A stretch of 55,468 nt of DNA from Pseudovirgaria hyperparasitica (GCA_010093815.1 ML996594.1); one strand, 5' to 3'; positions 15,469-55,120 are shown, counted from the first letter of the stretch. Numbers and translations: made by a program. Notes: generated from the letters alone by a model not told the origin.

Positions 15469-15516
15469 GTGGTGGTGGTAATGGTGGTGGTAATGGTGGT
15501 GGTAATGGTGGTGGTA
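15469..15516. repeat. 12-bp tandem repeat (ATGGTGGTGGTA)x~4 upstream of the RhoGAP start
   Basis: Directly visible; it produces the spurious poly-Thr N-terminus of the track ORF. Confidence 0.9.
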
Positions 15517-18714: not shown

Positions 18715-18733
18715 TAGAGGTTATACCCGGACT
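18715..18733 (+). promoter_or_regulatory. primer-binding site of element C, tRNA-Gln-like
   Basis: TAGAGGTTATACCCGGACT, RIP-reverted TGGAGGTTGTACCCGG, resembles the complement of a fungal tRNA-Gln 3' end (...CCGGGTAxxACCTCCA). Confidence 0.6.
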
Positions 18734-19189
18734 ATAAACTTATAGGGGGAGATTAGGACTCCGAAACTAGCTTAGGGGAAGTATATAGCGTGCCTAATAA
18801 GGTAGTCTAGACTTACTAGATTGAAGCCACGAGTCCGGAAAACAGGGAGTCCGGAGTCGCTAGGGGCTAGCCTCTTAAAAGTAGCCGTAAAAAGCATACG
18901 TATACTAATATAGGTGATAGCGCGACTCGAAAATGTCTCAGGGGAATAGAATATAAAACAGGGCTAGATAAAGTAGTAAAGAAGAGTTTAAAAACGATAA
19001 ATACAACCTATTTAGTACTACTATAGCTATTATTTATAAACACGGCTACACGAGTATATCACTTTAGGAACGCCTTACACGAAGATAATAACATAAGTAG
19101 GATACCGTGAATCTTATATTAATAAAGACGATAGTAATAGTTCACCTTATAAAGGGATTAATTAATATAGAGAAGGGATAATAGATGTT

Positions 19190-22100
19190 GTAGGTAGACG
19201 CATTAGGCCAACCTTTAGTTAAGGTAATCCCTTAACTAATAACCTTACCCCTAGCGTCTCCACTAGCATATCTACTACTAGTAATAGTACGATAGAAGCT
19301 TAAAACAACGACCTAGTAACTCGTAGAGAGATACTTAACTTCTTCATAGCATTTACGCGACAAGGAAGAATAGTACCTCTATCTACCCTAGCCCCCGAGC
19401 GCTTTAAAGGAATAAATATTATAGCCTTCCTTTAGAAGTACGAGAACATATATATAAACTATGAAGTTCCGCCTAATAAGAAGATAACCTCCCTACTATC
19501 ATACTACAAGGACTATCTCCGTCCTACTATTAAAGGAATAAGTAGATTTTAGAAATAGTAGTAGACCACGCTACGTGAAGAATTATTAAAGGAATTCTCT
19601 CTATTTAACTCCGCCCTCAAGGAAGGCACCATCTACTTTATCCGAAAATACGTGGAAATAGTTAAAGTAGACCCATCCTACTCTCTCCCTATATACTACT
19701 CCCGGTATCGTATTATCACGGAGAAACTTACGGCTAAAGGAAGCCTAAGCTCGTATTCGCGAATAGAGCTCTTCCTAGAAGGGCTGCCTAATAGTCTTAA
19801 GGCTCGGGCTATAGAGAAATGTTAACTCACGATGGAAGTATATAGTTATAACTAGGTAATTATCTATAGCTTCGTATTACGAAAGGCTAGAGTACTTAAG
19901 GAACTAGCTCGTATTAATAAGTACTTAGCCGCATAAGAGCTAGCCATAGCTATATACTATAAATCAAAGATAGGGAGTAAGAAGACTAGCTTAGAAGAGT
20001 AGTTATATAAAGAAAGAAGAACTAATGAATTTAGCTACCCCTCTCTAGTTAAAGTATATATCGTGCTAGGATCGGATAAGTTTAACGAGATAGTAGAGAG
20101 ATTTAGTAAACTAGACCTCACGTTAATTAAGATAAAGTCCTACTTTACCTCTAATCCCTTATTCCCATCCCTTAAGAAGTACGAACCTAAGCTACTTTCG
20201 GCTATTATTAACTAGTAGGCGCGAAGGCTAAATCTTTTAACACACCCCTAAGCACGAGGCATGCCTATAGAACTAACGCAAGTTTATCTATAGAATTATA
20301 TATAGAATAGAGAATACGTCTCTACCCGAGACTCCTAAGGAGGCGTTATAGCCTAGGATAGGCCTTAAAGACTAATTATATACATTACGTACGGAGGAGA
20401 TTACCTAATATATAGATATCCGGAGATAGTAGGATATATTAGAGACGGATTACTAAATATTAACGGGGTGCGAGTATTCCGAGGGCGTTTCGGGGCGAAT
20501 AGAGAAGAAATCCTATTACTACCCTCCTTAGTAGGGCTATAAGCTACTCTATAAGCTATCCGGAACTATATAGTAACGGTTTAAAACGGTCTAAGCTAGT
20601 ACGGAGGGGGAGTAAAGATTTCCATGTCCGTAGTAAACATTAACGCTTTATAGAGAGTGCTAGTATATAGTATTAGTATAAAACCTATAAAGGGTCCCTA
20701 CTAGACCTTAGCGGATAGCGATTCGGAAGAAGAAGTTATATCGCCCGAGAGTAAGAAAGATAGATATATAGAATTCTACGAACACTTCGACGTAGCTAGT
20801 AATAGATATATCCGCGAGGAGATAGCCCTAGAAGAGCCTACTATACTTATAATATCTAGAAGGGGGATTACGAAGAGTATACCTAATTATACTAAGGAAA
20901 GAAAGATTATCTATCTCCGCGGAATGCGTAAAGAGTAGTATATAAGAATTATTAAGGAATAGGAGGACGGTAAGAAGAGTAGTAACTAGAGAACGTCTAA
21001 ACAAGAGCCAACGGCGCCTAAGGATAAGATAGATAAAGGGGATAGCCTAAATCCTAGTTAAAAGGCACGTATCCGAGGCGTTAAGCTTAATAACTATCTA
21101 CGTGAGGGATAGCGGCTAAGTATAGAAGCTAGCGAAGCATGGCTAGTGCGCGTTCTAGGGATAACCATGAATATTACTATTAGCGAACTATTAAGCCTTA
21201 ATAGCGACTTACGTTATACGGTGTTCAAGAAGGGCGCCCCTAACTTTATAGCTAGAGAGGTCCGTAAGACTCGAGAGGAGAGAGCTAAGAAGAAAGGAAG
21301 AAACGACCATGCTATGGCTCCCGAGATAAATAAACTTAACGTATTAGCACCCCTCCATGCCACGGGGACGGCTATTATATAATAAGATATTAATTAGCTT
21401 AAGGAAGGGATAGTAAGGCTGGTAGCCGAGTATCTAAGGTACCCTATAGAAGTTAGTCCTAAAAGGGCGACTAGTATAGTACTATTTAATAGTAGCGCGT
21501 AGGTAAATAGTATTCGACTAGATGCTACGAGGCGTCTCGGGCTAGCGATATCTTCGCTTCTACTATATATAAAGAACTCGAGTTTAGTTAGCGCTACTTA
21601 GTATAGTACTCTATTCGTAGAAATAGTATAGTAATACCCTATCCGTATAGGTTGGATCGTTACAGCCACTTCGATATTCGTGTATAGTGAACTTAATTAT
21701 AACCTTATTCTAGGGGAGCTATATACTAGGTAGGCCTTACTTATAGTATAGAGGTTAGCCTCTAGGTAAGTACTCTTAATAGTCTACTCCGTATATAGAT
21801 AAGAATGTATAACCTTCGAAACTAGTCCGGACGAGTATATTCTAGTCTTAGAGAAGGAGGGTAACTCCGTAGCTAGAGACTAACTATATAGTAGAGTATG
21901 TTGCTAGAAGCCGGAGTTAAGCCGGATTATTAGTTAAGGGCTACCCTTAACTAATAATCCATACTAAATAGAGTCTAGTAAACCTACTAATAAAGGGGAT
22001 AGGATATATTTTTATACGGATATAGAAATAAGTTATATAGAGTTACTTTCCGAGAAAATCCGGCCTAAAAATGTTACTTAGTTATCGAGAAAAGATAACT

Positions 22101-25100
22101 TAGCCGCCCTAGTTACGGCGGCGAGGTACGCTGCCTTCGTATATAAATAAGGCACGATAATAGAACGGCTTATAGTAGGCTCTACCGGCCTCTAAAGACG
22201 GTATTCTTCCGGGGTATTAAAGGGATTTAGTATAGCTACCATGTATAAAAGAAAGGGAGTTAAAGTACACCCTATGGATAACTCCGAAGCCCACCGAAAG
22301 GTCCCTAGGAATCTATTAGGGTATCTAGACTAGCGTGAACGAGTAATCGTATAGTAGGTACTTCTTCTAGCCGTCCACCTAGGCCTTAACGCGTTTAATA
22401 GGCTAATAGAGCCTTAAAGGGTAACTATCCCGCTAGGAACACGTCTAACGCCTCTACATATAAGTTAGCTAAAGATTAGAATAGAGCTACGTCCCGCGGA
22501 ACTTAAGTTACTATATATAATCTTATTATATCGCGAGGAAGTACTAGTATAGAAATTCTTATACCTTAGTAAATTTAATAAAGAGGTAGCACCTCCGTAG
22601 GAGATCCGAATAGTAGAACATAAGGTATAGTAGGCTAAGAACTTTAATATTCCTAGAGCCCTTTATAGGAAGGTACTCATGATTCTAAAAGAGCGTCTTA
22701 ATAGCGGAAGGCTTAAGCCCTATAGTAGTCCTTATTAAAACGCCTATTTTCTTATGGAAAAGAAGAAGGAAGCTAATAAGGAACGAGATCATAGGTTAAT
22801 TAATTCGGCGATAGAAATCAACCGAGTTACTATTCGTAATGCGGCCACGCCGCCCTCGTATAAAGAATTCTCGGAGTACTTTACGGGGATAGCCGTCTTA
22901 ACGTTTACTAACTTCTTCTTAGGATATGATTAGATTCCATTAGTAGAGCATTACCGAGACTTAACGGGGTTTATAACGCCTCTAGGGTTACTACGCGGGA
23001 TAATATTACCTTAAGGGGCCACTAATTTAGTAGCTTAGTTCGTTAGGATCATATTAACTATTATATAAGAACACATCCCGGAGAGAGCTCTACTATTCCT
23101 AGATAACTTAGGTATTAAAGGACCCACGACGAAATATAACTCTAAGGAGGCCCTACCTAGAATTCGTAGGTATATCCTAGAACATTTAATTAACGTGGAT
23201 AAGGTTCTCGCGGATATAGAGCGCGCCGGATACGCTCTAAGTAGTAAGAAGACTTAGTGGTATATTAAAGCCGCTAACGTTATAGAATACGTCTACGGCA
23301 TTAAAGGGAGGCGACCGAGTAATAAAAAGGTTACTACTATTAGGGACTAGAAACCCTATAAAAACACGACGAATATGCGAGCCTTCCTTGGCGTTTATAT
23401 ATATTTCTAGATATGGATCCCCGGGTACGCTATTATCGCATCGCCGCTATTTATACTATTAAAGAATAAATCGGTCTAGTAGTAGATAGCTAAGGAGTAG
23501 ACCTCGATAGACGCGCTAAAGATAGCTCTAACTACTACTCCTATACTAATAACGTTACGGTACGGGATAGGTGCGGGAGATATAATCCTAGTAGTAGACT
23601 CTAGTAACATTAGATAGGGGGCTACGTTAATATAGGAGAATGAGAATTATAAACGTTAGCTATCGCGGTATAATAGAGGAATATAGTTAAAAGCTAAGAG
23701 AAACTACGACACCGTGAAACTAGAGTACCGAGCCCTCCTCCACGCGTTATAGAAGTTCTAGTAATATCTCTATAGTACGTACTTTATTATAGAAATAGAC
23801 GCGAATACTCTAGTTACTTAAATTAACCATACTATAACTAACTTACTAGGGGCGCTCGTTACTAGGTGGCTCGCGTAGATTTAGCTATAGAACTTTATAG
23901 TTAGGCACGTACCTAGAAAGCGTAACGTAGTCGCTAACGGTATCTTACGGATATACGAAGGAGAAGAACCACCAGACGTCCCTACCTTTAACCTAGACGA
24001 GTTCGTGGATATAGCTCTATATATAGACGTGCTAGAGACGTCGTTAATTAAGCCTATTAGCGGGAGAGATTACACGATAGAGATACTCGACTATACTACC
24101 ATTAAGTCTCCCTTAATAGATGAATATAGCGATAAATAGTAGAGGATTACGAAGTACCTTACTATACTCGAGAGGCTAACCGACCTAACTAACCGAGCGT
24201 ATAAGACCTTTATAACCGACTACCTAAAGTTCCTCGTATATAACTAAATACTCTAGCGGAGAGGAGATAGATATCACTAATATACACGAGTAATTAAGAA
24301 TCCGAATACTAGGGCGTGTATAATTACTACCACTCACGACGAGATAGATTATAGAGATAGTAAAGGGACCCTCGGAAGGATTAAGGATAAGTATTAGTAG
24401 GTAGATATACGTAGAGACGTGCGATAGCACGTGAAAACCTATAATAAATATTAATAACAAAGTAAGCTCCTTGGAGGTCTTAATAAAGGGCTCTACCACG
24501 TTATAACGCCTATTCTTTAGTAAAGAATATACTTAGACGTAACGATACTACCACCTTCCATAGGGTATAGTAAAGTAGTATCTATACGAGAATAGCTAAG
24601 CGGATAGACTAAGGCGGAGGCATGTACGGCGGCCACGTCCATAGTCGTCGTAAAGTTCCTCTTTAAGAACGTAATCTATAGATATGGAATCATTTCTAAA
24701 ATCACCTATAACGGTAGTAGAGAAAATATAGGTGCTATAGAGGAGCTTCTCCGACTCTATAGAATTCATTAGAAGATTACGTCTATATATAATCCCTAAG
24801 TAAATAGAATTATTAAGAGAAGTTTTATACTACTCGCTAATGCTCTCATAAAGATAACTAATAGCGGATTTAAGAACTAGCCCGACCACCTCTATACGGT
24901 CGTCTAGGTAGATAGAATAACGACACGTGCTAGTATAGGGTATAGTACTATATACCTCGTGCTCGGCTATAAACTAATCATACCTATTAAAGTCGAATTC
25001 GAGTCGCTCTAAATGCTCCCTTAGGACGAGATGCGATTAACGTCCGACTTACTTGCTCTTCGAGCTAGATAACTTAAGAGAAGATCCGAGGATCTTAAGG

Positions 25101-25600
25101 AGGCCTATACCTACGCGATACGAACGCGTAAGGAATCGAGAGAGGCATAGAATAATAACTATTACCTTCGTTAAGAGTCGTTACTAGTCGATATAATTAT
25201 CCTTCTATACGACTCGTAGTAATAGAAGGATATAGGGCGGAAGCTAAGGTAGCATTAGAGGGGGCCATATAGAATCTAGTCCGTGTTTAATTATACTTAT
25301 AAGCTTACGGAGCTTAATAGAGCCATGCTTAGAGGGACGTTTCCTAGCCATAGGTTAAAGAAATATTTTATAAGAAATGTGAGTAACGAGAGTTACGACG
25401 AGCCCTCACGACTACTAATTAGAAGAATTACTAAGGAAAATAAGGAGAGTAGTAATAAGGAAAACTATTATAAATAACTTACGGAACACCTTAACGACGC
25501 TACACGAACCCGGATAGAAGTAGTAATTCCTACTCCGTAAGACTTTAATAGAGAGGAATATTTACGTTTCCCTAGAATCGATATCTCCTTCTAGGGGATA
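19190..25600 (+). pseudogene. gag-pol of element C (RIP-inactivated)
   Basis: Same frame throughout: gag FKGINIIAFL ~19403, protease VLF(D)S(G)A(Q)VN ~21480, RT FF(S)GYD(Q)IPL ~22913, LP(Q)GATN ~23005, FLD(D)LGIKGP ~23096, RNase H ~23590, integrase YNP(Q)..GII ~24790. Ends approximate. Confidence 0.88.
21924..21960. repeat. palindrome GGATTATTAGTTAAGGG-CTA-CCCTTAACTAATAATCC (copy 1 of 4)
   Basis: Perfect 17-bp arms with a 3-nt spacer. Confidence 0.95.
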
Positions 25601-26238
25601 GAAGTTTTTTTAAGAAGGGAAGGGATACTTATAAAAGTAGTCTTATAACGATGAACTCTATTATCGAAAGAGGATAATAAACCCTATCATTACTATAAAA
25701 TAATAAAACTTATTATTAAAGTAAGTAATACTCGAAAGAAGACATAATGGCGTTTACGCAAATTCCACCCACTATATATTAAAGCCGGTTATATAATCGA
25801 AGCCCACCTATCGAAGGCCCATTTCATTACTATAGAACGGGCCCTATTAGAAACTAATAAGGAAGAAAAGAAGGAGGAGATATAGGAGAAAAAGATACTT
25901 ATAGGAAGTCTTATAAGAATAAGAATATACCTAGTATCTATTCATTCATAGATTCCGCTATATACCCGGTAGATACATTCATTTATAGATTTCCTATATA
26001 CCTAGCATATATTTATTTACAGATTCGACACGTATACGGGCCTATAGCCGTTAGTAAGGATCATTTATAAAAATTACTATATACCCGGCATTCGAGGAGG
26101 CATAAAAAGAGAACTTAAGATAGTATATAACTCTTCCCTCTTATACCTCTCTATACCTCCTTAATTAATAAAACCTCCTCCTCCACTTCCGCCTCACTTA
26201 ACTACCTCTCCTTAGAACATAACTCGCCAATAGAACCG

Positions 26239-29175
26239 ATAATAATAATAGCCCCGCCGAAAAAGAAAACGCCTACCCGTAAAGAGTTATAAGATCGTTA
26301 AGTACTAATAAGATAGACGCGGTCCTAGTTAAGAGTCGTAAGTACTAAAGTAGGGCTATTAACGGCTATTATAGTATTAAGGCCATCTACTACTCCGTAC
26401 GGATAGGCTATAGAAGCTACGGAAGTAAATAAGTCTACTATTAACCGAATTATCGCCATCTAGGACCCGTAAGAGCGATAGGACTACATTCTAGATATAT
26501 TTAATAATCTCCTTTATATTACCAGCCTTATAGAATAGCTCTTAAGTAGTATAGTTAACCTCTTCTAGGAAGTAGGAGCCGCAATAGGGTATAGTAAGGC
26601 AAAGATTAACTCCTCCATTCCGAAAGAAGTCTATAAGATAATTCGTCGTGGAAGAGACACCAACTCCCGTATCCTAAAAGCCAAAAATATAATCCTATAA
26701 AACTAGCGAAAAGACCTCCCTAATAACGACGGCTAGTTACTCTAATCTACCCTTAGATAGCTCTAGTAAATATAGAACTTTATAGAAAAGCTAGTAGCGC
26801 TCTTACGAGTGCGGACATGGGCGAGAGCGAGGAACTAGTTAAACGCATCCCTATAGTCCCGAATCGGCTAGGGATAGAAGAGAAGGGGAATTAAGGCATA
26901 TCTTTAGAGCTCTAATATTAATACCGCCCTAGCTAGCGATAGTAACGAGGACGGTCTATCTCTCTAGTAACTCTTAAACTACCCTAGCCGATAAAATAAA
27001 CTAACGTTCCATAATAAGACGGGACTTATTATCCCTACTAGTTAATAGTTACGGATAAGTAGAATGGTTTATAGGCCCGTCGAACACTACCTATAAATCA
27101 AAGAGATAAGTATATCGCCTCCGTCTTAGACCTTACCATCGCTAAAACCAGCGTAGGTAACACCTACGGTAAAGTCCCCTCCATAAAGCACGCCTTCTAG
27201 TTTAGTAGTATATCGTCTCTTCGAAGCTAGTCGTCCGTTCGAAGTAAGTATTCCTTCTACTACTACTAGTAAACGTCCCTTACCGGGCTATACGAGAACC
27301 TCTTTAGTATCTATTATAGCTATACCGACAAAACCCACTCGTAGACGTACCTTATCTACCAGCCCTTAGTAATTACTAGGGGCGCCTATATAATAATCCC
27401 TAGTTATTCTTAGTTTATACTCTAAGATAATAGCATCGGTCGAGGAAGAGGACGAGCCTAAGAAGTATTAATACACGCCTTTAGTAACGAAGACTTTTAA
27501 GGTAGCTACATTATTAAAGAAGAATTTCACGAGCATTAAGGGAATGGCCCTACTAGTGCGCTAGAAAGCGTAGATAGGTAACATAGCTATTCCGTATAAA
27601 GTCTACTATAAGCATTACCAAGACGTGGCTAGAAAGAATAATATACTCGTTAGCGTGTCCTACTTAAACCTAGTAGCAAGACTTAAAATAGTATATAAGT
27701 TTAGAGATAACGTGGGGGCCCTTAAAGTTTATAAGGGCCGCTATACCTAGTTCGCGAAGTACGCGCGGCCACCTTATCCGATAGAGGCATTAGGTGTCTA
27801 TCATTACTAGGCCCTAGAGACCCTAAAGCAAGTTATTAATATTAAAACCATTCTTACTAGTATCGCATTTATAATTCAGAAGGAGGACGGTAGAATAGGT
27901 AGGTAACTCTTCGACGAGTAGAAATATACCGGAAGTATTAATATTAAAGGGCTCTTTAAGCTACTTAAAAAGACGACCTCTATACTTAATAAGAGTATTC
28001 TAGAACTCGCGAGGGATGAATTTAATATATATAAGTACTACTAGCGCATGTTTAATAAGAAATCGAACTATAGCTAGCTACGAACTATATACTACTCCTA
28101 TATCTAATAGTTTATTAGGTAATACCTACTTTACTAGCTCACCTATATCGCTCTTCGGCCCGATCTTAACTACTATCTAATCTCGTACCCGTACTATACG
28201 AAGTCCTAGGATAGAGACGATAAGACGGGTTTTAAGTATCTCGATAACGCTATCAATCGAATCCTCGATCCTAGCGATAGATATAGGTTTAATATAATCT
28301 AGGGGAGTATTAGTCTCGACGACGAACGAAGTAACGACTATACCATAATTATTCCCCGCTCCTATAAGTTCTTAAACGAATAGTAGTCGAAGGCCAAGCT
28401 CCGCGAGGGGGTTAATCAAAATAGTATAATCACGGCTATTAATAATAAGATCTATAATACGGACGATAGGAAACGATTTAGTCCCTTCGTTCCGGTCCTC
28501 TACCAGTCCCTTAAAGTACACATCTCTAGCCTACTAATAATACACGGCGCCTAGGGTCCCATAAAGGGTAGAAGACGTACGATACTTCCATGGTATATCG
28601 CGATTAGCCCTAATCATATAATAATAGAAGTGCCTAAAATAGGTACATAGGAATAACTCGCAGTAGCTTATAGAAATTTAACTCTAGGACCCACGTCTCC
28701 GTTAGGATTTTCTAATAAATATAGCGCGATTCCTTTTGCCTTCCTAGCCGTAGTTTAACTCCCGAGTTTTAACGCCGTTAGTAACGCATTAGTCGGCCGT
28801 AAAAGATAGGATAGCTAGAAGGTAAAAGAAGAGGCAGCTACGTGGCTTAACGCAAGTCCTTAATAACTTAAAGCTAAGGTAGACGCCTAGTTTAAGGAGG
28901 GCTCGAGGGTATTCATGGAGACCTTTAAGAAAATAGTAAGGTAGGAAAAGCTAGTCTATAGGGATAGGTCGTTCTAGAAGGAATTTAATAAGGCGCGCGC
29001 CGCCAAGCAGCTAATTAATTTTAAGAAATTCGAGCCTAACGCGGGCCTAGATAATATTAAAGAGAACTTCTACGGATAGAAGAGGCCTAACGAACTATCC
29101 GACGAGGAGGAATCTAACCTCTCTAAGATAAGCGACATGATTCTTTAGAAGCTGGCTCACGACCTTAAGTACTAA
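26239..29175 (+). pseudogene. cargo ORF of element C: putative 2OG-Fe(II) dioxygenase (PhyH-like fold) with a long N-terminal extension, RIP-inactivated
   Basis: About 980 codons in one frame, where the stops read were RIP-type TAA/TAG. Motifs ALRPD..LISYPYYTK, GFK(H)LD (28237-28245), I(Q)GSISLDDE, HGA (28543), RRRTILPWY (28570). Confidence 0.7.
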
Positions 29176-29200
29176 GATTAGGCGCCTAAAAGCCTACCTA

Positions 29201-29233
29201 ATTATTAGTTATGGGCTACCCTTAACTAATAAT
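29201..29233. repeat. palindrome copy 2 (one mismatch), just after the cargo ORF
   Basis: ATTATTAGTTATGGG-CTA-CCCTTAACTAATAAT. Confidence 0.92.
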
Positions 29234-30455
29234 CCGGGCTAAGGTTTACCCGCGCCGAGAGGTTTACTAGGGGCGCATTTTATTCATATTAAGGTCTTTC
29301 TTTTAGGCGTTCTTCACACGGTTTCTTATACGGTTACTATACTACTAAGGGTAGTAGTTCTATAGGCCGGGGAGGTATATGTGGAAGGCCGCTCCTATAG
29401 CCCTATATATATATGTCCCTGGCTCGATTATATGGCTTCATTATATATTTAAGGAGGGCGTTTTCCTCGGTTATTCTACTCGGCACGCTTCCCCCATTAC
29501 TAATATTTAATAATTCGACCTTTCCTTATGTTTATAGGCCTCTATGGGTATTAATTATTAGACTTAGCTATTAAAGAATTAATTAAGAGTATTATATAGA
29601 CCCGTCCTATCGTAAAAGAGAACTAATAAGAAGTCATGCGTTTAAAGAGAACTTATAATACCTAGGAGAGATACTTATGAGTTCGTCGTGACTACTATAC
29701 TAAGAACATAGCTATTTACAAAAAGGGACACACGTGGCGATAGCTTACTATAGTAGTCTAACAGGTCATAGGAGGATTCGGGAATATATTTAAAAGGGTA
29801 GTCTACTCTTCTAATAAGGTTAATTTCTAAAGAGTAGAAATTAAGTATATACGGCCTACTTATATAGTAGTCTCGCTTATTCTAGCTAGCTTAACCTAGG
29901 TCCACCTATTACGGACTATACTAGACTATAGTAGTCTAGTTAAGTCCATCCTAGTGTTAGCCCTAATAATATCCTTCTTCTTTTTATGCTTCGCCCTAAA
30001 GTACTTAGCTATATATAAATCTATAATTCTATAAGCGTTATGTTTATACGCGCATCTAATTAAATCTATATAATATTATTAATAGTCTTTATATTAGTAA
30101 ACTTAAGCTCTAGTTTACTTTTATTTATATACGCGCTTATCCCTTACTTTATAGCTACTACCTTAGAGGTAGATCCGCGGGTTATATAACCGCTATATTA
30201 ACTAAGCTTATATTTAGTTCTCTTATTCTAAATTTTCTTCTCTAGTATATCTACCTTACTCTTAAGGTAAGTCGTTACTTTATATACTATCTCCTTTAGT
30301 TTAGATCCGTTTAGGTCTAGAGTAGTCTATTTTTATTAGAGCTGGTTCTATATAATCTACTCGCGTTATTATAGTTACTAATTTAGCTTCTTTAATCGCC
30401 TTTAAGGCTAAACAAGTATTCTACTCTTAGATCTCTAGTTAACGTGTATATATAG

Positions 30456-32311
30456 ATATCTAATACTAGTTCTATTTCTAAGCCTACCTCCTCCTCTCGT
30501 AAGACTCGCTCTAAAGAGATTATCTCTACCCCGGCTATACCGGCTAAAAAATCCACTTATTATAGTAGTATAAAGGCGCGCTCTAAGTTAGAGAAGAAGG
30601 TAGCTAAGGCTACTACTACTATTACTACTAATATGGCTACTAGTCGCTCTAATCTAGGTAATCCTAGTACTAGTATTACGGAAGAGGTAGCTATAAAGCC
30701 TACCTACACCTACTCGAGCCGCCTATCTACTCTACCTCCTTTAGAGAATAAAGAAGATCTCGTTATAGATAATAATTAAGAGTTTACGCCTTCGCCGCCT
30801 CGCTCTAAATACTATTCCTCTTTTCGGTCTAATATAGACTAACTTAGTCGCTCTAGGTCCTTTTAGGACCTTAATATTCGCTCTAAACCTAGCCCTAGTA
30901 ATAATAAGGCCTAGGTCGCCGAAGATACTAAACGTAGTCACGGTTTACGCTATAGGAAAACGGCGAACTACGGTTCGATATACTTTAAGTATATAAAGGC
31001 TTACGCTACTAGCTCTAAATATCTCTTCCGCTCTAACTCTAGTATTAGCTACTACTCTATTAACCGCGATAGGCCTATATACCTAATCTTTAAGCTCCCT
31101 ATCTACTACCGCCGCTATACTATCCTTAGTAAAGTTTATCTTTAGGTAAGTCTATTAGGCTATTTTAGTCTAGGGTAATCTAAAGTTATCTATACTAATG
31201 CGTTTTTAGATTTCTATTCGTGTATAAGATATATATAACGATCTTCGCGTCTACGAGACTCTCGGTGGTTCTAGCGGTTATCTAGCTTCTATATATAGAG
31301 AGTTTAGGGAGCGCTATAAGCTCTTTCTAGAGGTTATTAATGTAAACTTAACCTCTACTATATCTAATAAGTTTATATAAGGTANNNNNNNNNNNNNNNN
31401 NNNNNNNNNNNNNNNNNNNNNNNNNNNNNNNNNNNNNNNNNNNNNNNNNNNNNNNNNNNNNNNNNNNNNNNNNNNNNNNNNNNNNNNNNNNNNNNNNNNN
31501 NNNNNNNNNNNNNNNNNNNNNNNNNNNNNNNNNNNNNNNNNNNNNNNNNNNNNNNNNNNNNNNNNNNNNNNNNNNNNNNNNNNNNNNNNNNNNNNNNNNN
31601 NNNNNNNNNNNNNNNNNNNNNNNNNNNNNNNNNNNNNNNNNNNNNNNNNNNNNNNNNNNNNNNNNNNNNNNNNNNNNNNNNNNNNNNNNNNNNNNNNNNN
31701 NNNNNNNNNNNNNNNNNNNNNNNNNNNNNNNNNNNNNNNNNNNNNNNNNNNNNNNNNNNNNNNNNNNNNNNNNNNNNNNNNNNNNNNNNAGTCTATTACG
31801 GCTAGATCCTATTATATAACTCTATTTAGATATATATTCCTTATATAAGGAATATTATATATCTATTTATACCTGCCCTTTTCATAATTAAAGTATAAGT
31901 TTAGAAACCGTTAATTATTATTAACCTTAGCTTATAATTTTTAGTCGCTGCGAGATTCCTAGCGCTTAGGCTATCTATTCTAGAGAGTTAGTTTTAGCTA
32001 CTAAGACCATAGAAGAGATTCGTGCTATTTCTTTCTACCCGCCTCGTGCTACTAATAGATCTTATAAGAGATCTACTAGTTCTCCTTCTAAGTTACCTTA
32101 TAAGAGGGTATATATTCTATTCTAGATTATTCTAGACCGTGTTAGCTAACTTTAGGTCTAGTCGCTCCGCTCTAGCACTTAGTTATCGTCTTACTAGGCT
32201 CTAACTAAGCGCGTGGTTACTCTAGAGGATAAGGTCTCTAACCTCCGTTACTCTATTACTCGGTTAGTTTATTTACTACGCTCTAAGAGTAATAATAAGA
32301 TAGAGGAGTAG
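30456..32311 (+). pseudogene. antisense intron-containing accessory gene of Gypsy A (Zn-cluster-like plus coiled coil)
   Basis: Frame from ~30456 ends (C)RR(C)TILSKV(C)L(Q) at intron 31146-31209 (GTAAGT...CTAAT...TAG). Further candidate introns ~31893-31930 and ~32108-32155; last exon ALTKRVVTLEDKVSNLRYSITRL. Confidence 0.65.
31341..31886. mobile_element. LTR-type insertion D (solo LTR or collapsed element; contains N gap 31385-31789)
   Basis: Begins TG and ends CATA; TSD ATTAA at 31336-31340 and 31887-31891; absent from the homologous copy near position 480. Confidence 0.75.
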
Positions 32312-46079: not shown

Positions 46080-49000
46080 GTTACTATCTCTAGAACTTGA
46101 TTCTAAGGTATAGAGTGTCTAAGAAAAAATAGAGCAAATTTCAAAAATTGATTACTCTATAAGACACCACCTAAAATAAGTAATTTTTATATTACTAACT
46201 GCGTTACATTACTATATACTATATATATAAGTTTCAGCTTGGTATTGATTCCCAATCAAGAAATAAAATACAGTTTATGTCATTTTATTTAATGTCTACA
46301 CCTCTAGACACCACAAAATTAAATATTACTCTGTTATTTATAATTCAATACCAACTAAACTTTCTATACTATATTATAGTATTACTATAAGCTTATATTA
46401 TAAGTCTTATAATCATAGCTCTTAAATTAAGGTCTCTAGAATTTATCTAAATTCTCTCTAGAAAACAGTAGAGCTAGATTAGCTCTACTTATATTTATCA
46501 GAGTATAGAATCTAAAAAATAAGCGATTTATCTAAAATTCCTAGACTCTTAGAAGCTAGTAATTATGATATCTAGGCTATTAGAATAGAGTCTATTCTAA
46601 TAGAAAAAGGTTATGCTACTACTATAGAAGCACATCCTAAGAGCATGAATAGTCTTGAAATTGAGAACTATATGCTAATAGTAAGAAAGACTATGTCTAT
46701 TATTAGACTAGCACTTACTAATGGCCCTTTACTCCAAACAAGGAATATATTAAATCCCTTTAATTTATGGATAAGGTTAAAGAATCTATACTAGGCAAAG
46801 GGGTTTAGCTCTAAATTCTTATTATATAAAGAATTATTTAATACTACTCTTAGAGCCTCTAAGAATATAGAGGAGTATTTAAATAAGATTATAAGAATTA
46901 GAGATAATCTAAAGTCTAAATCACTTAAATTACCTAATAAATTCATAATAGCATGGGTATTAAATAACCTTACTAAGGAATATAAAAACCTAGTAACTAT
47001 TATTACCCAGTCTATTAGAAAGGATAAGGATTTAGATATAGATGAAATATTTAATTATCTACTAGATGAGTCTAGAAGGATAAAATCAAAGTCTTTACCA
47101 AAAAATGAGATAATTAATGTAGAAATGGCCAATAATACCAGTTCTAATAAATGCTCTTACTGTAAGAAACCAAATTATATAGAAGATAAGTGTTTTAAAA
47201 AATATCCTCATTTAAAACCCTCTAATAAGGGGAAAGGAAAGTAAAAGCAAAAGAAAGAGAAAGAGAAGAATAAAGAGATAAATGCTTCTTCTAAACAAGA
47301 AGAAGAGGTATTTACTACTTTAATTAATGACTCTACTATTTAAAAAATAGAGTCTATTAATAGCTCTTTCTATAAAACCTCTTGGATTATAGATTTAGGG
47401 GCTAGCATTAATATATACTCTAATAAGAGTCTCTTTATTAGTATTAAAGAATGTAATAATACTATTAAATGGGGAGATTCAAATAGAGTTATAAATGCTA
47501 GTGGTATAGGCGATTGTAGAGTTCTAATTACATCTACTAATATAGAGATATTAATTAAGAACTGCCTTTATATACCTAATTTTAGAGTAAATCTATTATC
47601 TATAGGAAAGATAATTAGAGATGGAAAGTCTATATTATTTAAAGATAACTATGCCTACATCTATTCAAAGAATAAGAGGCTATTAGCTAAGGCTAGTATA
47701 ATAAATAATATTAGTATTCTTAAGACAACTCCTATATATAAAGAACCTGATTCTTTATATACCTCTATAGAAAATAAGATTATAGACACTCAAAGTAGTT
47801 CTATTAATTCTACTATAGATTTATAGTATAATAGATTAGGCCATATAAATTAAAAGGCATTAAATCAACTTAAAAATGATAAGATTATAGAATTCCCAGA
47901 TAATAATCTATTATGTAAAGAGTGTGAAATATGTCTAAAGGCTAGTTATACTAAAATATATAAGTCTAATTATATTCCTAAACCTAAGGAATATCTAGAG
48001 GTTATATATAGTGACATTTATAGTCCTTTACCATCTACTATAAATGATTATATATACTTTATAACTCATTTAGATGGCTATTCTAAATATCTAGAGGTAG
48101 ATATTATGAAAAATAGAGATGAGAACTTCTTAATTACTAAGAATTATATTACTAGATAAGAAAACCAGTCTAATAATAATAATAAAGTAAAGAGATTCCA
48201 TTCTAATAATGCTAGAGAGTATAAATCATCATTATATAAGTCTTATTTTAATGAAAAAGGCATAGAATATACCTATACATGTCCTTATAGTCTAGAACAG
48301 AACTCTAAAGTAGAGAGAATTAATAGAACATTACTTAATAAAGTTAGATTATTACTTTATCAAGCTAATTTACCTTATTATTACTAGGCTGAAGCTCTAT
48401 TAGCTGCGTATTATCTATATAATAGAACACCACATTCTAGTATAGAATATAAAACTCCCTATGAACTTAAATATGGTAAAAAACCAATTATTACATATAT
48501 AAAAGTATAGGGTTCTAGGGTATATAAAAAGGAACATATACCTAAGAACAAATTAGAGCCAAGAAGTAGCTTATATTATCTTATAAACTATAATGATAAT
48601 AATCAGTATAAATTACTTAATATTAGTAATAATACTACTATATGGGCTAAAGATATTACTATACTAGAGAGTACTTTTTATAATAAAAGTTAAAAACTCT
48701 ACTTAGACTCTCTAGAGCAAGAGTCTATATATAGAGAACTAAGTGAAAATGAATCAGAAGAAGACGAAAATTATACAGATAATGAGTCTATATATGATTC
48801 AAATACTCCTAAAATTACAGCCGAATCGGGTGATAATTACAGTTAGAATCAATTTATGAATAATAGAGAAAATCAACCTAGACTCTCTAGAGGGTCTAGA
48901 GACTCTAGACAACCTAGACAGTCTATAGACTCTATTAATTCAGATTCAGAAGACGAATTAGCTTATACTAATAATAGTAATATTAATTCTAATGCTATGT

Positions 49001-49863
49001 GTTATTATACTTATAATAGTCTATTTAAATTTAGTGCTTATAATATATCCTTAGATATTATAGAGCCTAAATTATATAAATAAGCTATGAAAAGTACACA
49101 TGCTATAGAATGGAAAAATGCTACTATTAAGGAGTATAATGACTTATTAAGTTAAAATACATGGGATTTAGTAGATAAACCTAAAAATGGTTCTACTAAT
49201 ATAATCTCTAGTAGATGGGTATTTAAAATTAAATTAAACCTAGATAATACCATTAATAAGTATAAAGCCAGATGGGTAGCTAGAGGTTTTCTACAAAAAT
49301 ATGGAATAGATTACCTAGAAACCTTTGCTTATACTACAAGACCTATAGTAATTCGATTATTACTACTTATAGGCGGGTTATATAATCTTAAAATACATCA
49401 ATGGGACTTTAAATCAGCTTTTCCTAATGCTAGATTAAAAGAAACCATATATATATACCAGCTAGAGGGGTTTATAGACTCTAATTACCCTAATAGAGTC
49501 TATAAATTAAATAGAGCTTTATATGGACTTAAGCAATCAGTTAGAGAATGGCAAGACCTACTTAAGAATATATTAATATCCTTAAAATTCACTTAAATTA
49601 TAGCTGAAAATGTAGTCTATATTAGAGATAATATAATTATTTTAGCCTATGTAGATGATATATTAGTTTTTGCACCTAATACTAAAGATATAGATAACTT
49701 CTATTTAGAGATAACCAAGTACTCTAAATTAGATATATCTAATCTAGGGCAAGCTAAATATTACCTAGGAATGGAAATAAAGAGAGATAGAACTAAAGGT
49801 TCTATTATATTATCTTAATCTTCTTTTATTAAGAACTTATTAATTAAGTTTAATAAAGAGAAT
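46080..49863 (+). mobile_element. Copia/Ty1 LTR retrotransposon, truncated in RT by the LINE
   Basis: gag NYDI(W)AIR(M)ESILIEKG at 46561, knuckle CSYCKKPN(H)IEDKC ~47152, protease WIID(S)GAS ~47382, (W)(H)NRLGHIN ~47824, integrase before RT, YKARWVARGF ~49261, YVDDILV ~49648. Left LTR boundary is approximate. Confidence 0.9.
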
Positions 49864-50102
49864 ATAATAATAATAATAATAATATTATATAACTAGGTAG
49901 AGTAGTACTCTATAGTTCTATGCCTCCTCTAGTCTAAGCCACTATATAAGAAGAAACCCCATAGGGAAAAACTTCCTTATATCTATAACTACATCTCGTT
50001 AAACCTCTATTTCGTCTTAAGTATATAGCTATAGGGTACGCCTATTAGTCTATAGCCTATATTACCGTTATTTTACCCTTAGGTAGCACGTATAGATACG
50101 GA

Positions 50103-50137
50103 GGTTATTAGTTAAGGGCTGCCCTTAACTAATAATC
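50103..50137. repeat. palindrome copy 3, in the LINE 3' UTR
   Basis: TTATTAGTTAAGGG-CTG-CCCTTAACTAATAA. Confidence 0.95.
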
Positions 50138-53100
50138 GGGGTTCTCCTAGGGTTCTTCCGGTATATATTAGGTTACTACCGGTATATACCGGGTCTCTTC
50201 CGGTATATATTTCCGGGTCTACTAGTACTAGAGGAGTAGTAGATATATAAGCATCTATCGGGAGACGTCCTTAGGGTACTTATTAAGCTATTATACGATA
50301 TCTAAAGTCTTCGTAATGTAGATAAGCTATTACCATTATATATAGAGGTTAGGGTATATAGCTAGATAGTAGCGTATTATACCTCTCCGGCCGTATACCT
50401 TATACTATAGAGAGGTATTAGGAACGCCTCTCTTATAGATATAGTATAGGAGTTCTATAGCGCCCGTTCGGGCTTAGATAAGTATAGATACTTAGGCTTT
50501 TGTTAGCCCTTTATATATCTATTTACTTAGTTCCTTCTATAGCTCTTGAATCTACTCTAGGTACCTATTCTACTAGAAGGTCTAGTAGGTATAGAGTATC
50601 TCTTTCTACTTATCTTAAGTCTACGACCGTATATTTTTCATGAGTTCTTAAAGGCTCTACCGGTCTAGGAGAGCGTCTGGGTTATCTTGGACTTCTTATA
50701 CTACTTAGCTAGAGTCGGCTTCTATTAAGTACCTATACCGTATTTAATTCCGGCCTATATATAGAAGTACACGGTAATATATACTAATTCGTATACGTAG
50801 CGCGGCGAAAGTATATTCTACGTTTTCTATACGTTCCTATACTTATTATTTAGTAAAGTATACCACCCTCTATGTCTAGTAGAAGTTATATATACTTATA
50901 ATATCTATCTCGCGTCGTAGTAGCACCGTGTTAGTAGCTTTATATACGCCTAATATAAGACGGAGTATATGGTTCTATATGGATTTAAGCTTCATTCGCC
51001 TAGTCTATATAGATTCGAGCTTTATTCGCCTAGTCTATATAAGGGCTATATACTAGCACTCGTGTCTAAACGTAAAGGCGGGTCGTACTATAGATATATA
51101 TAGCTGGCGTACCTTATCCTAGGCGGTTCCCTACGTGGAGGCTATAATCCGTTATATAGCGGCTTCTACCTAGAGGGCCCTAGAGACGGCGTATACCACT
51201 TATAGTCCCCATTTAAGCTTACTATCTAGTATAACTCTAAGCGCGCGTATACTTTATACTAGTAGTTCGTTAAATGCGTCGATTCGGGGGCGTCGTTCGC
51301 CTTCCCTAGTTACCTATTTCCCTTAATAATTAATAAAGTATATAAGCTAGTATTTCTCCGGGGCGAACTTTACTCCGTGGCATTTTATCTACTAGAGGTA
51401 CCTCTCGTAGTCCTATTCTAGTCTTCTATACGTTCGGTTAGTATTATTATTAATAGCTAGGAGATATATATTATCGGCGTATCCGACTATCTCTATATAC
51501 TTTATTTCTTAAAGAAGGTCTACCGTAAAGAAGAGAAATAGAATCGGAGAGATAGTGCTCCCTTATAGGATGCCGTATACCGTCTCTTTATATTCGCTCT
51601 AGTATCTAGGGATATATATCTAAGTTATTCTTCCTATAAGGAATAACTATATAAAGCGTATAATCTATTCCGGTATTCGTCTTATCCGGAGGTTATAAAT
51701 AAGTCTTATATAGTTTACCTTATTAAACGCTCCGGCCATATCGAGGGAGAGGAGCGATACTACCCGTCTCTACTTCTATACGGCCTAGACGACTTTAATA
51801 ATATATTAGATAGCTATTATTAGGGAGCTATCTATCTTTACCTTCTAGTTCGGAGGGAGGAGATTATATTCCTATACCGCGGTACTTATCTTCTTTACTA
51901 TTATAGCCTCTAGTATCTTATCTAGGTAGGAGAGAAGGGCGATTAGTCTCTATCCCTTTAGAGAGTTAGGGCTCTTTTCTAGTTTCGGGAGTATAATGGT
52001 ATAGGCGACTTAGAAGTACTAGGGGTGGTACCCCTACGTGACGCATGCTTAGAATATATAAGTAATAAGTAGTAGGGTCGCCTTTATAGTTCTTTTTAGA
52101 TATCGATTTAGAATTCTATCTAGTCTAGGTACTTTATTATTTAGGAGTATCTTAATAATATTAAGTATATCCTCCTCCGTAACTTCTTTGGGGATGTCTA
52201 CTATATATAGGTATTCGGTGTTATAAACGTCTAATAGGTCTACTAGTTCCGGGAGAGGGAACATGGCCTCCCGTAGGGCCTTAGTTTTCTTAAGGCTCGT
52301 GAAGTATATTCTCCCCTAATATATTAGGGGAGATATAAGTAGCGGGGGTGTCGGAGTATCTACGCCCTTAGCCTATTTCGCTATACGCTATAGCTCTATT
52401 ACGTATCGTGTCTATTAACTAGTAATTATATACTACTATTTACGCCTTTCGTTACGGAGGACTTTATCACGTTATTATATCGCTTCCTTCTATTCTTTCT
52501 ATGACTCGGGTATTCTTATATAGTATATACGTCTATATAGCCTTTGGGCGTCTTATCTACTTTCCCGTACTTAAGGAATCCCCTTTACTTCTAGGGGCCG
52601 GTATATTTAGTATAGTACGTGTTTATTTCTCGTATTCTAGTATATTTATAGGAGTATCTATACGGCCTAGTCTATGGCTAGGTTATTAGATATATTAACT
52701 ATAGAGGGATCTAGGATCGCCGATTCTAGGTCCTTTAGGTACTTTTCCTAGTCGGTATCCTTCTATATCTATTATCCCCGTTATTTATTCGGGGTATATA
52801 CATTTATTACGGTTTCTATATATTTATAGTCGGAATCCGTCTATACCTAGCCTAGGCGGTAGTATTAGATCCGGTAACTAATGTACTCCGTGGCGAAGAT
52901 AAGGTTAAGCGTAGACCCGTCTTCGTTCTATTTATATTTTTTCTATATAACTTATTCTATAGGTGTAAGTAGGTATAGGAAGTCGTGGTAGCGGGTGCGT
53001 AGTTCCCTTACTCTAAGTTCTTCCCTAACTATAGCTAGGCCTCTCTACTATCGGTAGTAGAGGTTAAAGTCTTCTAGGAGGATGTGTTACTCTAGTTCCG

Positions 53101-54907
53101 TGGTACCCTTAAGCATCTCGTCTAGTATAAGTATACGTTATTAGTTATATATGTTATATATATATAGGGGGCCTATATCTATTTATAGGTGTAGTATTAT
53201 CCTAAGATTATCGCGCTCGGTATACAACCATAATAAGAGTAGTATTAACCTATAAATATAGAAGAGGACTCGTCTTTCTAGTCCTAGAGGGTATATAGTA
53301 TAGTATCCGGGGTGTGTGGTTGGTTTACTCATCTAGTAGTATTTATAGGGTTCCTAGATAGCGAGTATTATAGCCCCGGTCTCTTCGAGGAGCGTCGCCT
53401 AGTTCTCTCTTTTATATTATATATTTACCTATATAATTCGGAGTATATTCTAGTCCCTTATTAGATACTAGGGAGTATATATATCTATATACTTATTCCT
53501 TAGAGGCGCGACTATCCTCACGCGGTAGCGGCTTTAACTATACCTTTTAGTCGTCCTATCGTCTTCGGGATAATCTACTATCCCGCCTAACTACCTTCCG
53601 GAGGGGAGGTTAGGGGTGTTATAAAGAAAGGGCCCGAGATAGATATTATATTCTATAACTATCTCGCGCCTCTTACTTTTATCGTATAAATGTATTCTAT
53701 AATCTATTTACGTTTTATGCACGTTAACGACCATAATAGGTATTTCCCGTCGTAGTTTAAATACTATACTATGTCCCTATTTCTTAGCCCGTCTCCTCGC
53801 GGTTTATAAGGACACTCCTAGATAGTATAGTCCCTACGGTACTATCCGCACTTAGTCTTCTATAAGTACCTTTATATAGTATATCTATACCCTTAATAGT
53901 TAAAGCACTATATTATTATCTATACTCTATTCTATAGCTCGGCTATAAGAAGCTCTCCTTCTACTAGGAATCCCTTCTATATAATATATTATACGAGGGC
54001 GGGGTCTCGGAGCTCTATAATTATAGTAGAGTGTTTTTTCGCCGTCGTCTTAATCGTCTATAGGTTCTTCTACCACGCTTTCACGATCTTAATCCCTAGG
54101 TATTTTCGCGTGTTAGATTATTCTATACGCGTAATATCCTCCGCTCCGATAGCCTATCCCCGCACGGGTACTAAGTATATCTATATCAGGTATATAGCCG
54201 CCCTAATAGAGGCGTCTAGAAAGATACTACTAATCGCGTTCGGATCGCGCGAGATAGTCTACTACGCGATATTTATTATTATGGTAAGTACTACTCCTCC
54301 TAGCGTGAGTTTAGCGGCGACGATATTTAACTATATTCCCTTTTATTCGTTAATCTTACTTACTATATTCTTTAGAGATGCTCGCTAGACCTATGCTAGG
54401 GTATCCTTATCCTAGATTGCGATATATATACTATATACCGCGTCGCCGGTCCGGGGGGCCCGTGGTATAGCTTCTAGTATTACTACTATTTATGCCTATG
54501 TACTAGGGCGCTTACCTTAAGTAAGTTCCTCCTAGATTCTACGTAGGCTAGCCTCTATTCGGTCGAGCCTACCCTCTAGTCCTCCTAGTTATATCTTCTT
54601 CTCCTCCTCCGTAATTCCCTTTAGATTCTAGATAAGGTTCTAGAATATATATAGGAGGGTCTTCTAGCCCTCTCCGGCTTCCTTCTCTATACGTACTATC
54701 TAGTAGTTAATATAATCTAGGAGGGTTTCCCCTCTCGGGGTCCCCTTTATTCCGTCTATCTATAGCGGCGTGCGCCTTTAGGTGTGTTCTACGTTTTAGA
54801 TAGGTATATAGCTACTCTCGGTAATGTCGCTATATAGCCTTTTCTATTATACTAGTAGGGGTATATCCAGTATATACCGGGGTATATCGGTGCCTAAGGC
54901 CGCTATA

Positions 54908-54940
54908 TTTATTAGTTAAGGGCTACCCTTAACTAATAAA
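54908..54940. repeat. palindrome copy 4, in the LINE 5' UTR
   Basis: TTTATTAGTTAAGGG-CTA-CCCTTAACTAATAAA. Confidence 0.95.
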
Positions 54941-55120
54941 AGGGGGTCGGTATATCGGCGTTCTAGTAGCGTGGTCCGTGCCTCTATCTCCGTAAGGATT
55001 TTAAGAGGGTGTATATATATCTTTATACGGCAATAACGTCTTGGTTTCGACGCTGCACGTACGTGCGTATAGTAGTAGTTAGTATACTCGGTATACTCTA
55101 TCGATTAAGGTGTGTATCTC

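Follow-up and report, generated by a model that had tools for sequence, protein, structure and literature searches.

Background

The closest described fungal feature to the sequence analysed here is the GalEa Copia elements' Conserved Hairpin Site (CHS), a hairpin cis element in retrotransposons of filamentous ascomycetes (PMC5445492); the paper also describes an 'extended CHS' of 33-62 bp, reported from five species and common to elements of different families within species. The present analysis concerns a stretch of 55,468 nucleotides from Pseudovirgaria hyperparasitica (GCA_010093815.1 ML996594.1), called the window in its full length, in which one 31-bp palindromic unit, TTATTAGTTAAGGGCTRCCCTTAACTAATAA, is present at four sites, two of them in a Ty3/Gypsy retrotransposon with three open reading frames (ORFs) and two in an unrelated long interspersed nuclear element (LINE). 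The species-specific sharing of this extended CHS across families resembles the sharing between Gypsy and LINE in the window. The CHS, however, is described as a single site in Copia elements, directly after the 5' long terminal repeat (LTR), where it replaces the primer-binding site and has 9-bp arms and a 12-41-bp loop, whereas the window palindromes are several, have perfect arms of 14-17 bp, lie at the ORF boundaries of the Gypsy and in the untranslated regions (UTRs) of the LINE, and none abuts an LTR. A GalEa-type CHS begins at the last base of the 5' LTR, and identity with it was rejected, since ~504 bp separate the nearest copy (19212) from the end of the LTR (18708).

Retroviruses carry dimer-linkage palindromes, such as the lentiviral dimerisation initiation site (DIS/SL1) and the gammaretroviral leader palindromes, and the 3'X dimer-linkage sequence (DLS) of hepatitis C virus (HCV) and umbravirus dimerisation are of the same kind. 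By analogy, the window unit may be likened to them in being self-complementary, in a possible switch from hairpin to duplex, in a sequence that drifts provided that it stays symmetric, and in self-specificity. Dimer-linkage elements are, however, usually 6-16 nt long and confined to one place, in the leader or at the 3' end, while the window unit has 31 nt, dispersed identical copies and a share in a LINE. Long-distance pairing is also used by plus-strand RNA viruses, between frameshift or readthrough elements and the 3' UTR in luteoviruses and tombusviruses, and in the 5'-3' cyclisation of flaviviruses. Here the analogy would lie in matching elements near the ORF1/ORF2 recoding region and the 3' end, or in both UTRs, but the viral interactions use short complements in loops or bulges and the window has identical full palindromes. 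No such long-distance pairing in retrotransposons was found in our literature searches.

Small mobile palindromes form another class, which includes repetitive extragenic palindromic (REP) sequences and BIMEs with their RAYT transposases, the Rickettsia palindromic elements, which insert in frame, mitochondrial GC clusters and double-hairpin elements. To our knowledge, none has been described in fungal nuclear retrotransposons. They resemble the present palindromes in having no gene, a length of tens of bases, many copies, in-frame positions within ORFs (as in one relative described below, L019) and no clear target duplication; they differ in that here neither an HUH nor any other mobilising enzyme was seen and no insertion polymorphism was found. 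Lastly, the Su(Hw) array of Drosophila gypsy consists of tandem asymmetric 26-bp motifs in the 5' UTR that are bound by a host zinc-finger protein. It too is a set of repeated motifs inside a Gypsy and outside the LTR, but the window palindromes are perfect and dispersed.

RNA and DNA signals that act in cis have hardly been explored in fungal retrotransposons. The string of the TTATTAGTTAAGGGCTRCCCTTAACTAATAA motif was not found in a literature search, and dispersed identical palindromes at fungal Gypsy ORF boundaries, their sharing with a LINE and the ORF3-bearing lineage were undescribed in searches of the literature outside subscription journals and supplements. The reading that we favour, with a probability of about 0.45, is that the unit is an inherited dyad-symmetric cis module of the Gypsy lineage, most likely a self-pairing RNA, that was captured by the LINE.

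The palindromic unit and its copies

Direct reading and a pattern search both located the unit at the four places given in an initial annotation of this DNA; the search returned eight matches, that is, the four sites on both strands, while none of 100 dinucleotide-preserving shuffles gave any match. The unit was the only inverted repeat with 100% complementarity among the 25 longest of 144 short-range pairs in the window, and it is identical at 31 of 31 positions between the Gypsy and the unrelated LINE. As had been noticed before, the arms extend differently from copy to copy and yet remain complementary, reaching 17 nt in copy 1 and 15 nt in copy 4 (Table 1), and in copy 3 the outer letters of the spacer pair, which gives a layout of 15+1+15. 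The degenerate fifth copy retains an exact right arm of 14 nt (at 19229) and 10 nt of the left arm, with a different centre of 4-5 nt. Stop codons were read in all six frames of the unit. The predicted RNA folds of the four full copies ranged from -19.6 to -24.5 kcal/mol, the lowest value being that of copy 1 (z -6.4), and that of the degenerate copy was -12.5 kcal/mol.

When the five copies were aligned with 70 bp of flank, the likeness was confined to the unit, plus a TC on the right in three of the four full copies, so the flanks are indeed unrelated, as the initial annotation had it. No direct repeat of the kind left by target-site duplication (TSD) was found flanking any of the five. All copies in the window are inside the host elements, either between the Gypsy LTRs or in the LINE UTRs, and in both elements the pairs do bracket coding DNA. 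Gypsy and LINE are the only two host families of the unit within the 55 kb, and no copies were found in the remaining 38 kb, which includes other transposons altered by repeat-induced point mutation (RIP) and the gene-rich part. It had further been claimed that all spacers point the same way. This is true on the chromosome but not relative to the transcripts, since the LINE is on the minus strand and the palindrome centres are opposite in Gypsy and LINE transcripts, and the argument from a common direction therefore loses its force.

Several candidates for further copies or pairing partners were discarded. A purine/pyrimidine-coded search for RIP-diverged copies returned only the one at 19212 and a match at 14884, inside a 1400-aa ORF, which was treated as chance because about two such matches are expected by our own estimate. 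Half-arm matches at 26158 and 37843 were rejected for want of a second arm. Complementarity between the flanks of different copies, as would serve long-range pairing, came to 5-8 nt with mismatches and was not convincing; a 12-nt stretch to the left of copy 2 matches one to the left of copy 4 only when transitions are collapsed, and by our own estimate this is not significant after multiple testing. The exact 25-nt core had no match in metagenome, prokaryote-genome and viral contigs, which argues against a widespread adapter or vector contaminant, and a search of the window against Rfam at the gathering threshold gave no family.

Table 1. Coordinates of the palindromes and of their host elements, counted from the first letter of the window
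Feature	Position	Strand	Remarks
Degenerate fifth copy	19212-19242	+	Gypsy leader or gag start, ~504 bp after 5' LTR; half-site scan
Copy 1	21924-21960	+	17-nt arms, centre CTA; exact unit 21927-21957; gag-protease/pol boundary of Gypsy
Copy 2	29201-29233 (unit 29202-29232)	+	One mismatch, A>T in left arm; after ORF3, 147 bp before 3' LTR
Copy 3	50105-50135	-	LINE 3' UTR; centre CTG on + strand
Copy 4	54908-54940 (exact unit 54909-54939)	-	15-nt arms; LINE 5' UTR
Ty3/Gypsy element, three ORFs	18338-29748	+	Complete but RIP-degraded; LTRs 18338-18708 and 29380-29748, flanked by TAGTAG target duplication
pol (reverse transcriptase, RNase H, integrase)	22223-25456	+	tblastn with L010 ORF2 residues 122-1179, 35.5% identity
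Conserved ORF3	27598-28815	+	Matched by L010 ORF3 residues 443-831 in tblastn (30% identity, E 1.6e-49)
Non-LTR element (LINE)	49890-55125	-	RIP-degraded; ends approximate, from composition and Copia-like coding on both sides, read by eye
Second, LINE-specific palindrome, CCGGTATATACCGG type	50158-50215	.	Three copies beside copy 3; matching cluster 54858-54960 around copy 4

Persistence of the unit in sequencing runs

Contigs from four sequencing runs were available, X1 and X2 from one sample and X3 and X4 from another with the same species label. When the whole Gypsy was compared with short run contigs at 80% identity or more, 29,863 contigs of X1 and 10,172 of X2 matched, and the differences among these Gypsy-family contigs were almost all transitions. 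The only indels among those listed at a share of at least 5% were two of 1 nt (18678 and 29720), so that no deletion of ~31 bp was seen among them at any Gypsy palindrome site. Five joints were listed, either LTR-LTR or small local skips, none of which touches a palindrome or links two of them, such as 21927 to 29202. Loose ends at the Gypsy site resembled only the LINE context. In X3, two of the three matched contigs carry the unit, with 0 and 1 differences over 33 nt, together with LINE 3'-UTR flanks.

The comparison of X1-X3 contigs thus indicates that the unit is part of both families, also in another sample, and an assembly or library artefact is rejected. The initial annotation had allowed that the motif might be missing from most family members or peculiar to this locus; the run contigs keep it at the Gypsy positions, and the X3 contigs contain it.

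Palindromes in related elements

Relatives were sought with a profile of seven homologues of the Gypsy pol (P0001-P0007) in metagenomes, which gave 333 pattern matches, 229 of them confirmed; the best 80 loci, amounting to 624 kb, were examined and are designated by L numbers. The TTATTAGTTAAGGGCTRCCCTTAACTAATAA motif was found in none of the 80. However, 18 perfect palindromes with arms of at least 11 nt were present in 11 of the 80 loci, while in 30 first-order Markov simulations the number averaged 1.17 and did not exceed 3, an excess of 15-fold. Several sublineages have a palindrome of their own, 21-33 bp long and repeated 2-12 times in one element, at landmarks corresponding to those of the window.

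Upstream of the conserved pol, palindromes were found in L019 at 1506, in L060 at 4560 (L032 and L058 have the orthologous ones), and in L020 and L021 at 4439, where another copy stands 1.7 kb further upstream; in the L064 group one palindrome recurs in 10 loci at a fixed offset of ~69-102 nt (mostly 87-99) upstream of the pol match. The spacer between pol and ORF3 holds palindromes in L010, L011 and L071, and three copies each in L060 and L032. After ORF3, or 100-130 bp before the 3' LTR, they occur in L060 (13486), in its L032 orthologue and in L019 (9452). Strong palindromes were present in six of the ten ORF3-bearing loci, and palindromes also occur in relatives in which no ORF3 was detected (L020, L029, L038 and the L064 group).

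The element L019 has open ORFs, and 12 copies are spread over its 9.8 kb. Eight are inside ORF3, always in one of the two stop-free frames and in poorly conserved stretches. L029 has one copy in frame in the linker between RNase H and integrase. These copies within ORFs fall in hypervariable linkers, and the alignments fit insertion and an origin in situ alike.

The sharing between families in the window is not unique, since L032 holds a second case. A palindrome variant outside its three-ORF element, identical at 24 of 27 positions to the L060 copy at 3037 and differing by three transitions, belongs to a chromovirus-type Gypsy on the minus strand (RVT_1, E 5.9e-25), where it follows the protease directly. 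At L032:14750-15210 a minus-strand chromovirus-type Gypsy has a hairpin cluster of five different palindromes with 13-15-nt arms between gag and protease, with a common GACTAGAC core. In L010, and also in L011 and L071, the spacer palindrome is flanked by inverted CCAAT/ATTGG pentamers (L010:7357-7403), which makes it a 47-bp imperfect palindrome; it lies ~60-100 bp upstream of ORF3 and may be a promoter-like arrangement for that gene.

Inheritance and conservation of symmetry

The L010, L011 and L071 spacers can be aligned at 82% identity, and the palindrome is at the corresponding place in each. In L071, which is RIPed, a double transversion relative to L010 and L011 (G..C to C..G) keeps the symmetry, and unpaired transitions are also present, as expected for an inactivated element. 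All four L060 site groups have orthologues in L032 (88% identical in pol), and every palindrome site compared among L060, L032 and L058 was filled. No pair of a filled and an empty site was found in the window family, among L010, L011 and L071, or among L060, L032 and L058.

Symmetric changes were also found in the L019 copy at 8363 and in the L032 variant at 14158, although compensatory cases are few (L071, L019 and L032). In the window copy 3, L010/L011, L018 and L019 the symmetry continues to a single central base. Because a plain hairpin has a loop of at least 3 nt and needs no innermost pairs, a 1-nt centre favours an extended duplex or a dimer site. What the palindromes share with dimer-linkage elements is thus a self-complementary sequence in an element-internal region and a symmetry kept by compensatory change, with few instances, some at CpG. 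In the L064-type hairpin a G stands opposite a T in eight of the ten copies, which pairs only as sense-strand RNA; the copies are related and partly decayed, and we regard the G-T pairing as weak support for action as RNA.

The Gypsy host and its ORF3

The LTRs of the window Gypsy are 93.8% identical, or 100% when transitions are collapsed. Pfam detected an RT_RNaseH domain in the element, and reverse transcriptase (RT), RNase H and integrase but no protease in the homologues P0001-P0007. The ORFs of these homologues start 8-150 residues upstream of a conserved YKRKGVKVxP motif, which in the window is found at ~22247, with copy 1 ~107 codons upstream of this conserved pol start; a degenerate protease motif, read by eye at ~21488, precedes copy 1. 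Since the homologous ORFs start near the motif and contain no protease, copy 1 marks the boundary between ORF1 (gag-protease) and ORF2 (pol). It had been placed between protease and RT within the gag-pol frame; it does follow the degenerate protease motif but is not inside conserved coding sequence.

In the intact relative L010, whose LTRs are 99.6% identical, ORF1 (471-3512) includes an aspartyl protease and is followed by ORF2 (3497-7102) and ORF3 (7456-10419). The L010 ORF3 matches the window at the position given in Table 1, which identifies the supposed cargo ORF as a conserved third gene of the lineage; the location of copy 2 after that ORF was correct, as the homology ends at 28815 and the copy is downstream. 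Judged by these homologies, the Gypsy is a member of a three-ORF lineage with gag-protease, pol and ORF3. The route to pol differs within the lineage: ORF1 and ORF2 of L020 are in the same frame with a single stop between them (4190-4192), as in a readthrough type, and in L010 (3497-3512) and L019 (1390-1402) they overlap by 13-16 nt, ORF2 being in the -1 frame.

ORF3 (~990-1275 aa) is conserved across the sublineage, in the window, L010:7456-10419, L011:8638-11595, L013, L015, L019, L032, L060 and L071. Its core (L010 residues ~525-830) resembles 2-oxoglutarate/Fe(II) dioxygenases of the PhyH type, with an Atlas feature score of 0.95 and a structural TM of 0.66-0.74, and the Pfam PhyH match in the L011 ORF3 is weak (E 0.007, below the curated cut-off). 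On these model comparisons, ORF3 appears to carry a fold resembling that of PhyH-like dioxygenases. Upstream of the dioxygenase-like core, C399, C401, C445 and H448 are invariant in the ORF3 alignment. An ORF3 profile had no match among solved structures in the PDB at E <=1, and neither this search nor Pfam found a DNA-binding domain. No description of a dioxygenase-carrying fungal Gypsy lineage was found in literature searches.

The LINE host

Pfam placed RVT_1 at ~51341-51961 in a minus frame of the LINE, and the five best homologues (P0018-P0022) have an endonuclease (PF03372/PF14529) and RT (PF00078). The second host thus has the RT of a LINE, an endonuclease in its homologues, which is undetectable in the RIPed window copy, and no bounding direct repeats. 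Copies 3 and 4 are each ~200 nt from the ends of the element, as those ends were inferred by eye. The one LINE relative retrieved, in L071 and RIPed, has no copy of the palindrome.

The LINE also has a second palindrome, of the CCGGTATATACCGG type and the form CGG-N6-CCG, of which three stand beside copy 3, three before copy 4 and one after it, so that the clusters and the palindrome copies appear in mirror-image order at the two ends. A 172-bp fragment of the same LINE family at 5727-5898 is 96.5% identical to 50502-50673 with transitions collapsed; it adjoins another repeat at 5728 and stops short of the palindrome positions.

Repeat-induced point mutation

The window has a RIP-type landscape, with a GC content of 16-40% outside a gene-rich block at ~6-16 kb. 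Its repeats are 64-94% identical. With transitions collapsed the range is 84.5-100%, and of the 15 pairs listed for the plus strand 13 then reach 96.2-100%. A transition-collapsed self-comparison revealed no second copy of the Gypsy interior or of the LINE in the window that could be used as an empty site.

CpA and TpG are absent from the unit except in the spacer of copy 3, and the unit is therefore nearly immune to further RIP apart from that centre. Neither recency nor selection can be read from the likeness of the four copies, because saturating RIP is symmetric on a palindrome and drives independent copies to the same end state. The CTG of copy 3 is probably the older centre, CTG to CTA being a RIP-type transition. 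In the LINE copy of sample X3 the flanks are less mutated (3 of 44 flank letters in the less-mutated state) and the unit is identical, which argues mildly against the suggestion that the arms were once richer in GC, as they are in the relatives, and were altered by RIP.

Interpretation

The reading as an inherited cis module is favoured by the fixation in the family, the orthology, the recurrence of landmarks with unrelated sequences, the kept symmetry and the 15-fold excess of palindromes in relatives. According to this proposal, each sublineage would have its own palindrome of 21-37 bp, the copies within one element being kept alike, at a set of landmarks comprising the leader or gag, the region just upstream of the conserved pol, the pol/ORF3 spacer and the last 100-150 bp before the 3' LTR. 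The most likely mode of action would be a hairpin in the transcript that switches to an extended duplex with another copy, either on the same RNA, where it would bring about long-range pairing of ORF boundaries and ends or cyclise the LINE, or on a second RNA, in dimer linkage or co-packaging. Less probably, one dimeric protein specific to the element would use the palindrome as its symmetric site. The LINE would have acquired the module in both UTRs by capture, through recombination or mimicry, and its ends might consequently be able to pair with each other or with Gypsy RNA. A pairing RNA would explain the likeness of copies within an element, the drift between lineages and the irrelevance of orientation. 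We infer the pairing function and the direction of the capture, and place the action at the RNA level, in the transcript, with moderate confidence. The functions first suggested for the motif included a cis site shared by both families, for which there is now support, and a lox-like site, for which there is not.

Several observations weigh against the cis module, 1) the 31/31 identity between Gypsy and LINE is not predicted by a purely intra-element function and needs an extra capture step, 2) the sharp 31-bp borders look like those of a discrete inserted unit, 3) the 12 copies in L019, with eight inside ORF3, look like a spreading repeat, 4) the opposite centres in Gypsy and LINE transcripts exclude loop-specific RNA recognition, 5) the symmetric changes in L019 are partly at CpG sites and may be a mutational coincidence, 6) the metagenome relatives are few and mutually related and 7) the sample of runs X1 and X2 is probably the source of the assembly, so that these runs are not independent of it.

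Should the ORF boundaries indeed be marked by self-pairing or protein-binding modules, these would show how expression or packaging is coordinated in a three-ORF Gypsy lineage, and the exact sharing with the LINE would be a rare and directly testable case of one retroelement family borrowing the signal of another. A stimulator of programmed frameshifting or readthrough would be expected ~5-9 nt downstream of the slippery site or leaky stop. That role was rejected, because in intact relatives the palindrome is 92 nt downstream in L019 (ORF1 end 1402, palindrome from 1494), which is too far, and 247 nt downstream in L020 (stop 4190-4192, palindrome 4439).

A doubtful but serious alternative is that the unit is a selfish micro-palindrome of ~30 bp, with no gene and no target duplication, that propagates itself among the reverse-transcribed elements of one genome. 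Its spread would come about through template switching at hairpins or through gene conversion; it would survive only at permissive sites, non-coding or in linkers, and be amplified passively with its hosts. The sharp borders and unrelated flanks of all five window copies are what such a unit would leave, and its presence across families in two genomes (Gypsy and LINE in the window, three-ORF and chromovirus-type Gypsy in L032) would follow directly. The 12 copies in the 9.8-kb L019, which extend into variable linkers within ORFs and are in stop-free frames only, and the in-frame L029 copy in the RNase H-integrase linker point in the same direction, as does homogenisation within an element, the L060 copy at 13486 matching the other L060 copies while its L032 orthologue differs. 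A unit that moves should, however, leave presence/absence polymorphism, and none was found in the window family among the indels listed, in L010/L011/L071 or in L060/L032/L058. The remaining 38 kb of the window had no copies either, and at the Gypsy site the LINE context is the only one that the loose ends resemble. It would take strong filtering of independent insertions to put unrelated palindromes at the same landmarks in different sublineages, and the compensatory transversion in L071 arose in situ. The selfish unit thus does better than the inherited module on the sharing across families, the sharp borders and the L019 copies, and worse on the orthology, the lack of polymorphism and the recurrent landmarks.

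A selfish unit would be the first nuclear eukaryotic counterpart of the bacterial REP-like or the organellar palindromic elements. That perfect palindromes of ~30 bp constitute an undescribed nuclear selfish or cis-parasitic module in fungi, TSD-free, symmetric, resident in reverse-transcribed elements and copied between unrelated retroelement families of one genome, from Gypsy to LINE in the window and from the three-ORF Gypsy to a chromovirus in L032, we consider unlikely; in its boldest form, they would be recruitment sites for the dioxygenase-like ORF3 protein, mimicked by other elements for an anti-silencing benefit.

Quite unlikely, too, is a double-stranded DNA operator for a dimeric protein, whether encoded by the element, for example by ORF3, or a host factor recruited for enhancer, insulator or anti-silencing activity, the site then being copied by other elements. 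Such an operator would account for a symmetry that is perfect through a 1-nt centre in those sublineages with ORF3 that were examined (window copy 3, L010/L011, L018 and L019), its function would be independent of orientation, as suits the LINE on the opposite strand, and element-specific sequences would fit co-evolution with an element-encoded protein. The conservation of ORF3 with its four invariant residues and the strong palindromes in 6/10 ORF3-bearing loci agree with this. However, the part of ORF3 that can be recognised resembles hydroxylases of small molecules or proteins, and no DNA-binding domain was found in it by Pfam or the PDB profile; the sites are in transcribed internal regions rather than the LTR promoter, the L064-type G-T pairing favours RNA, and palindromes also occur in relatives without a detected ORF3.

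It is very improbable that the unit is a classical miniature inverted-repeat transposable element (MITE), or a DNA transposon's excision footprint, that arrived independently at the five places. The unit, as two inverted arms of 14-17 nt (14 nt at the least) with sharp borders, looks like abutted terminal inverted repeats, but 31 bp is below the usual size range of MITEs. The tiny MITE with TSDs contemplated in the initial annotation is contradicted by the lack of a duplication at all five copies and of a ~31-bp deletion, and hence of empty sites, among the indels listed at a share of at least 5%; an identical junction at four sites is unlike end-joining footprints, and related elements have palindromes at orthologous sites. 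A lox/FRT-like site at which a tyrosine recombinase would excise or invert the bracketed segment is scarcely credible, even though both elements have coding DNA between paired sites of like chromosomal orientation, because lox and FRT have an asymmetric 6-8-bp spacer as crossover region and the centre here has 3 nt, and in copy 3 effectively a single one, because Pfam found only RT, RNase H and protease, and no recombinase, in three sense frames of the Gypsy and LINE and in the L010 ORFs (a weak point, the window copies being RIP-degraded), and because no contig joins 21927 to 29202 among the joints listed, the only long ones being LTR-to-LTR. Under any of these explanations, intact relatives of the L010, L011 and L019 types offer, in their palindromes, targets that are short and mutable.

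Other features of the window

Coding sequence of Copia type on the plus strand, read by eye, bounds the LINE at 49500-49885 (RT motif YVDDILVF) and 55130-55468 (protease-like DLGAT). The order of these parts is not that of one interrupted Copia, and the arrangement is therefore a nest of several elements. Two runs of N (3918-4397, 480 bases; 31385-31789, 405 bases) are inside repeated RIPed elements, and the long 'ORFs' there are artefacts of the N runs. The gene island at 6-16 kb is GC-rich (~50%) and contains an open frame of 1400 codons on the minus strand (11340-15542).

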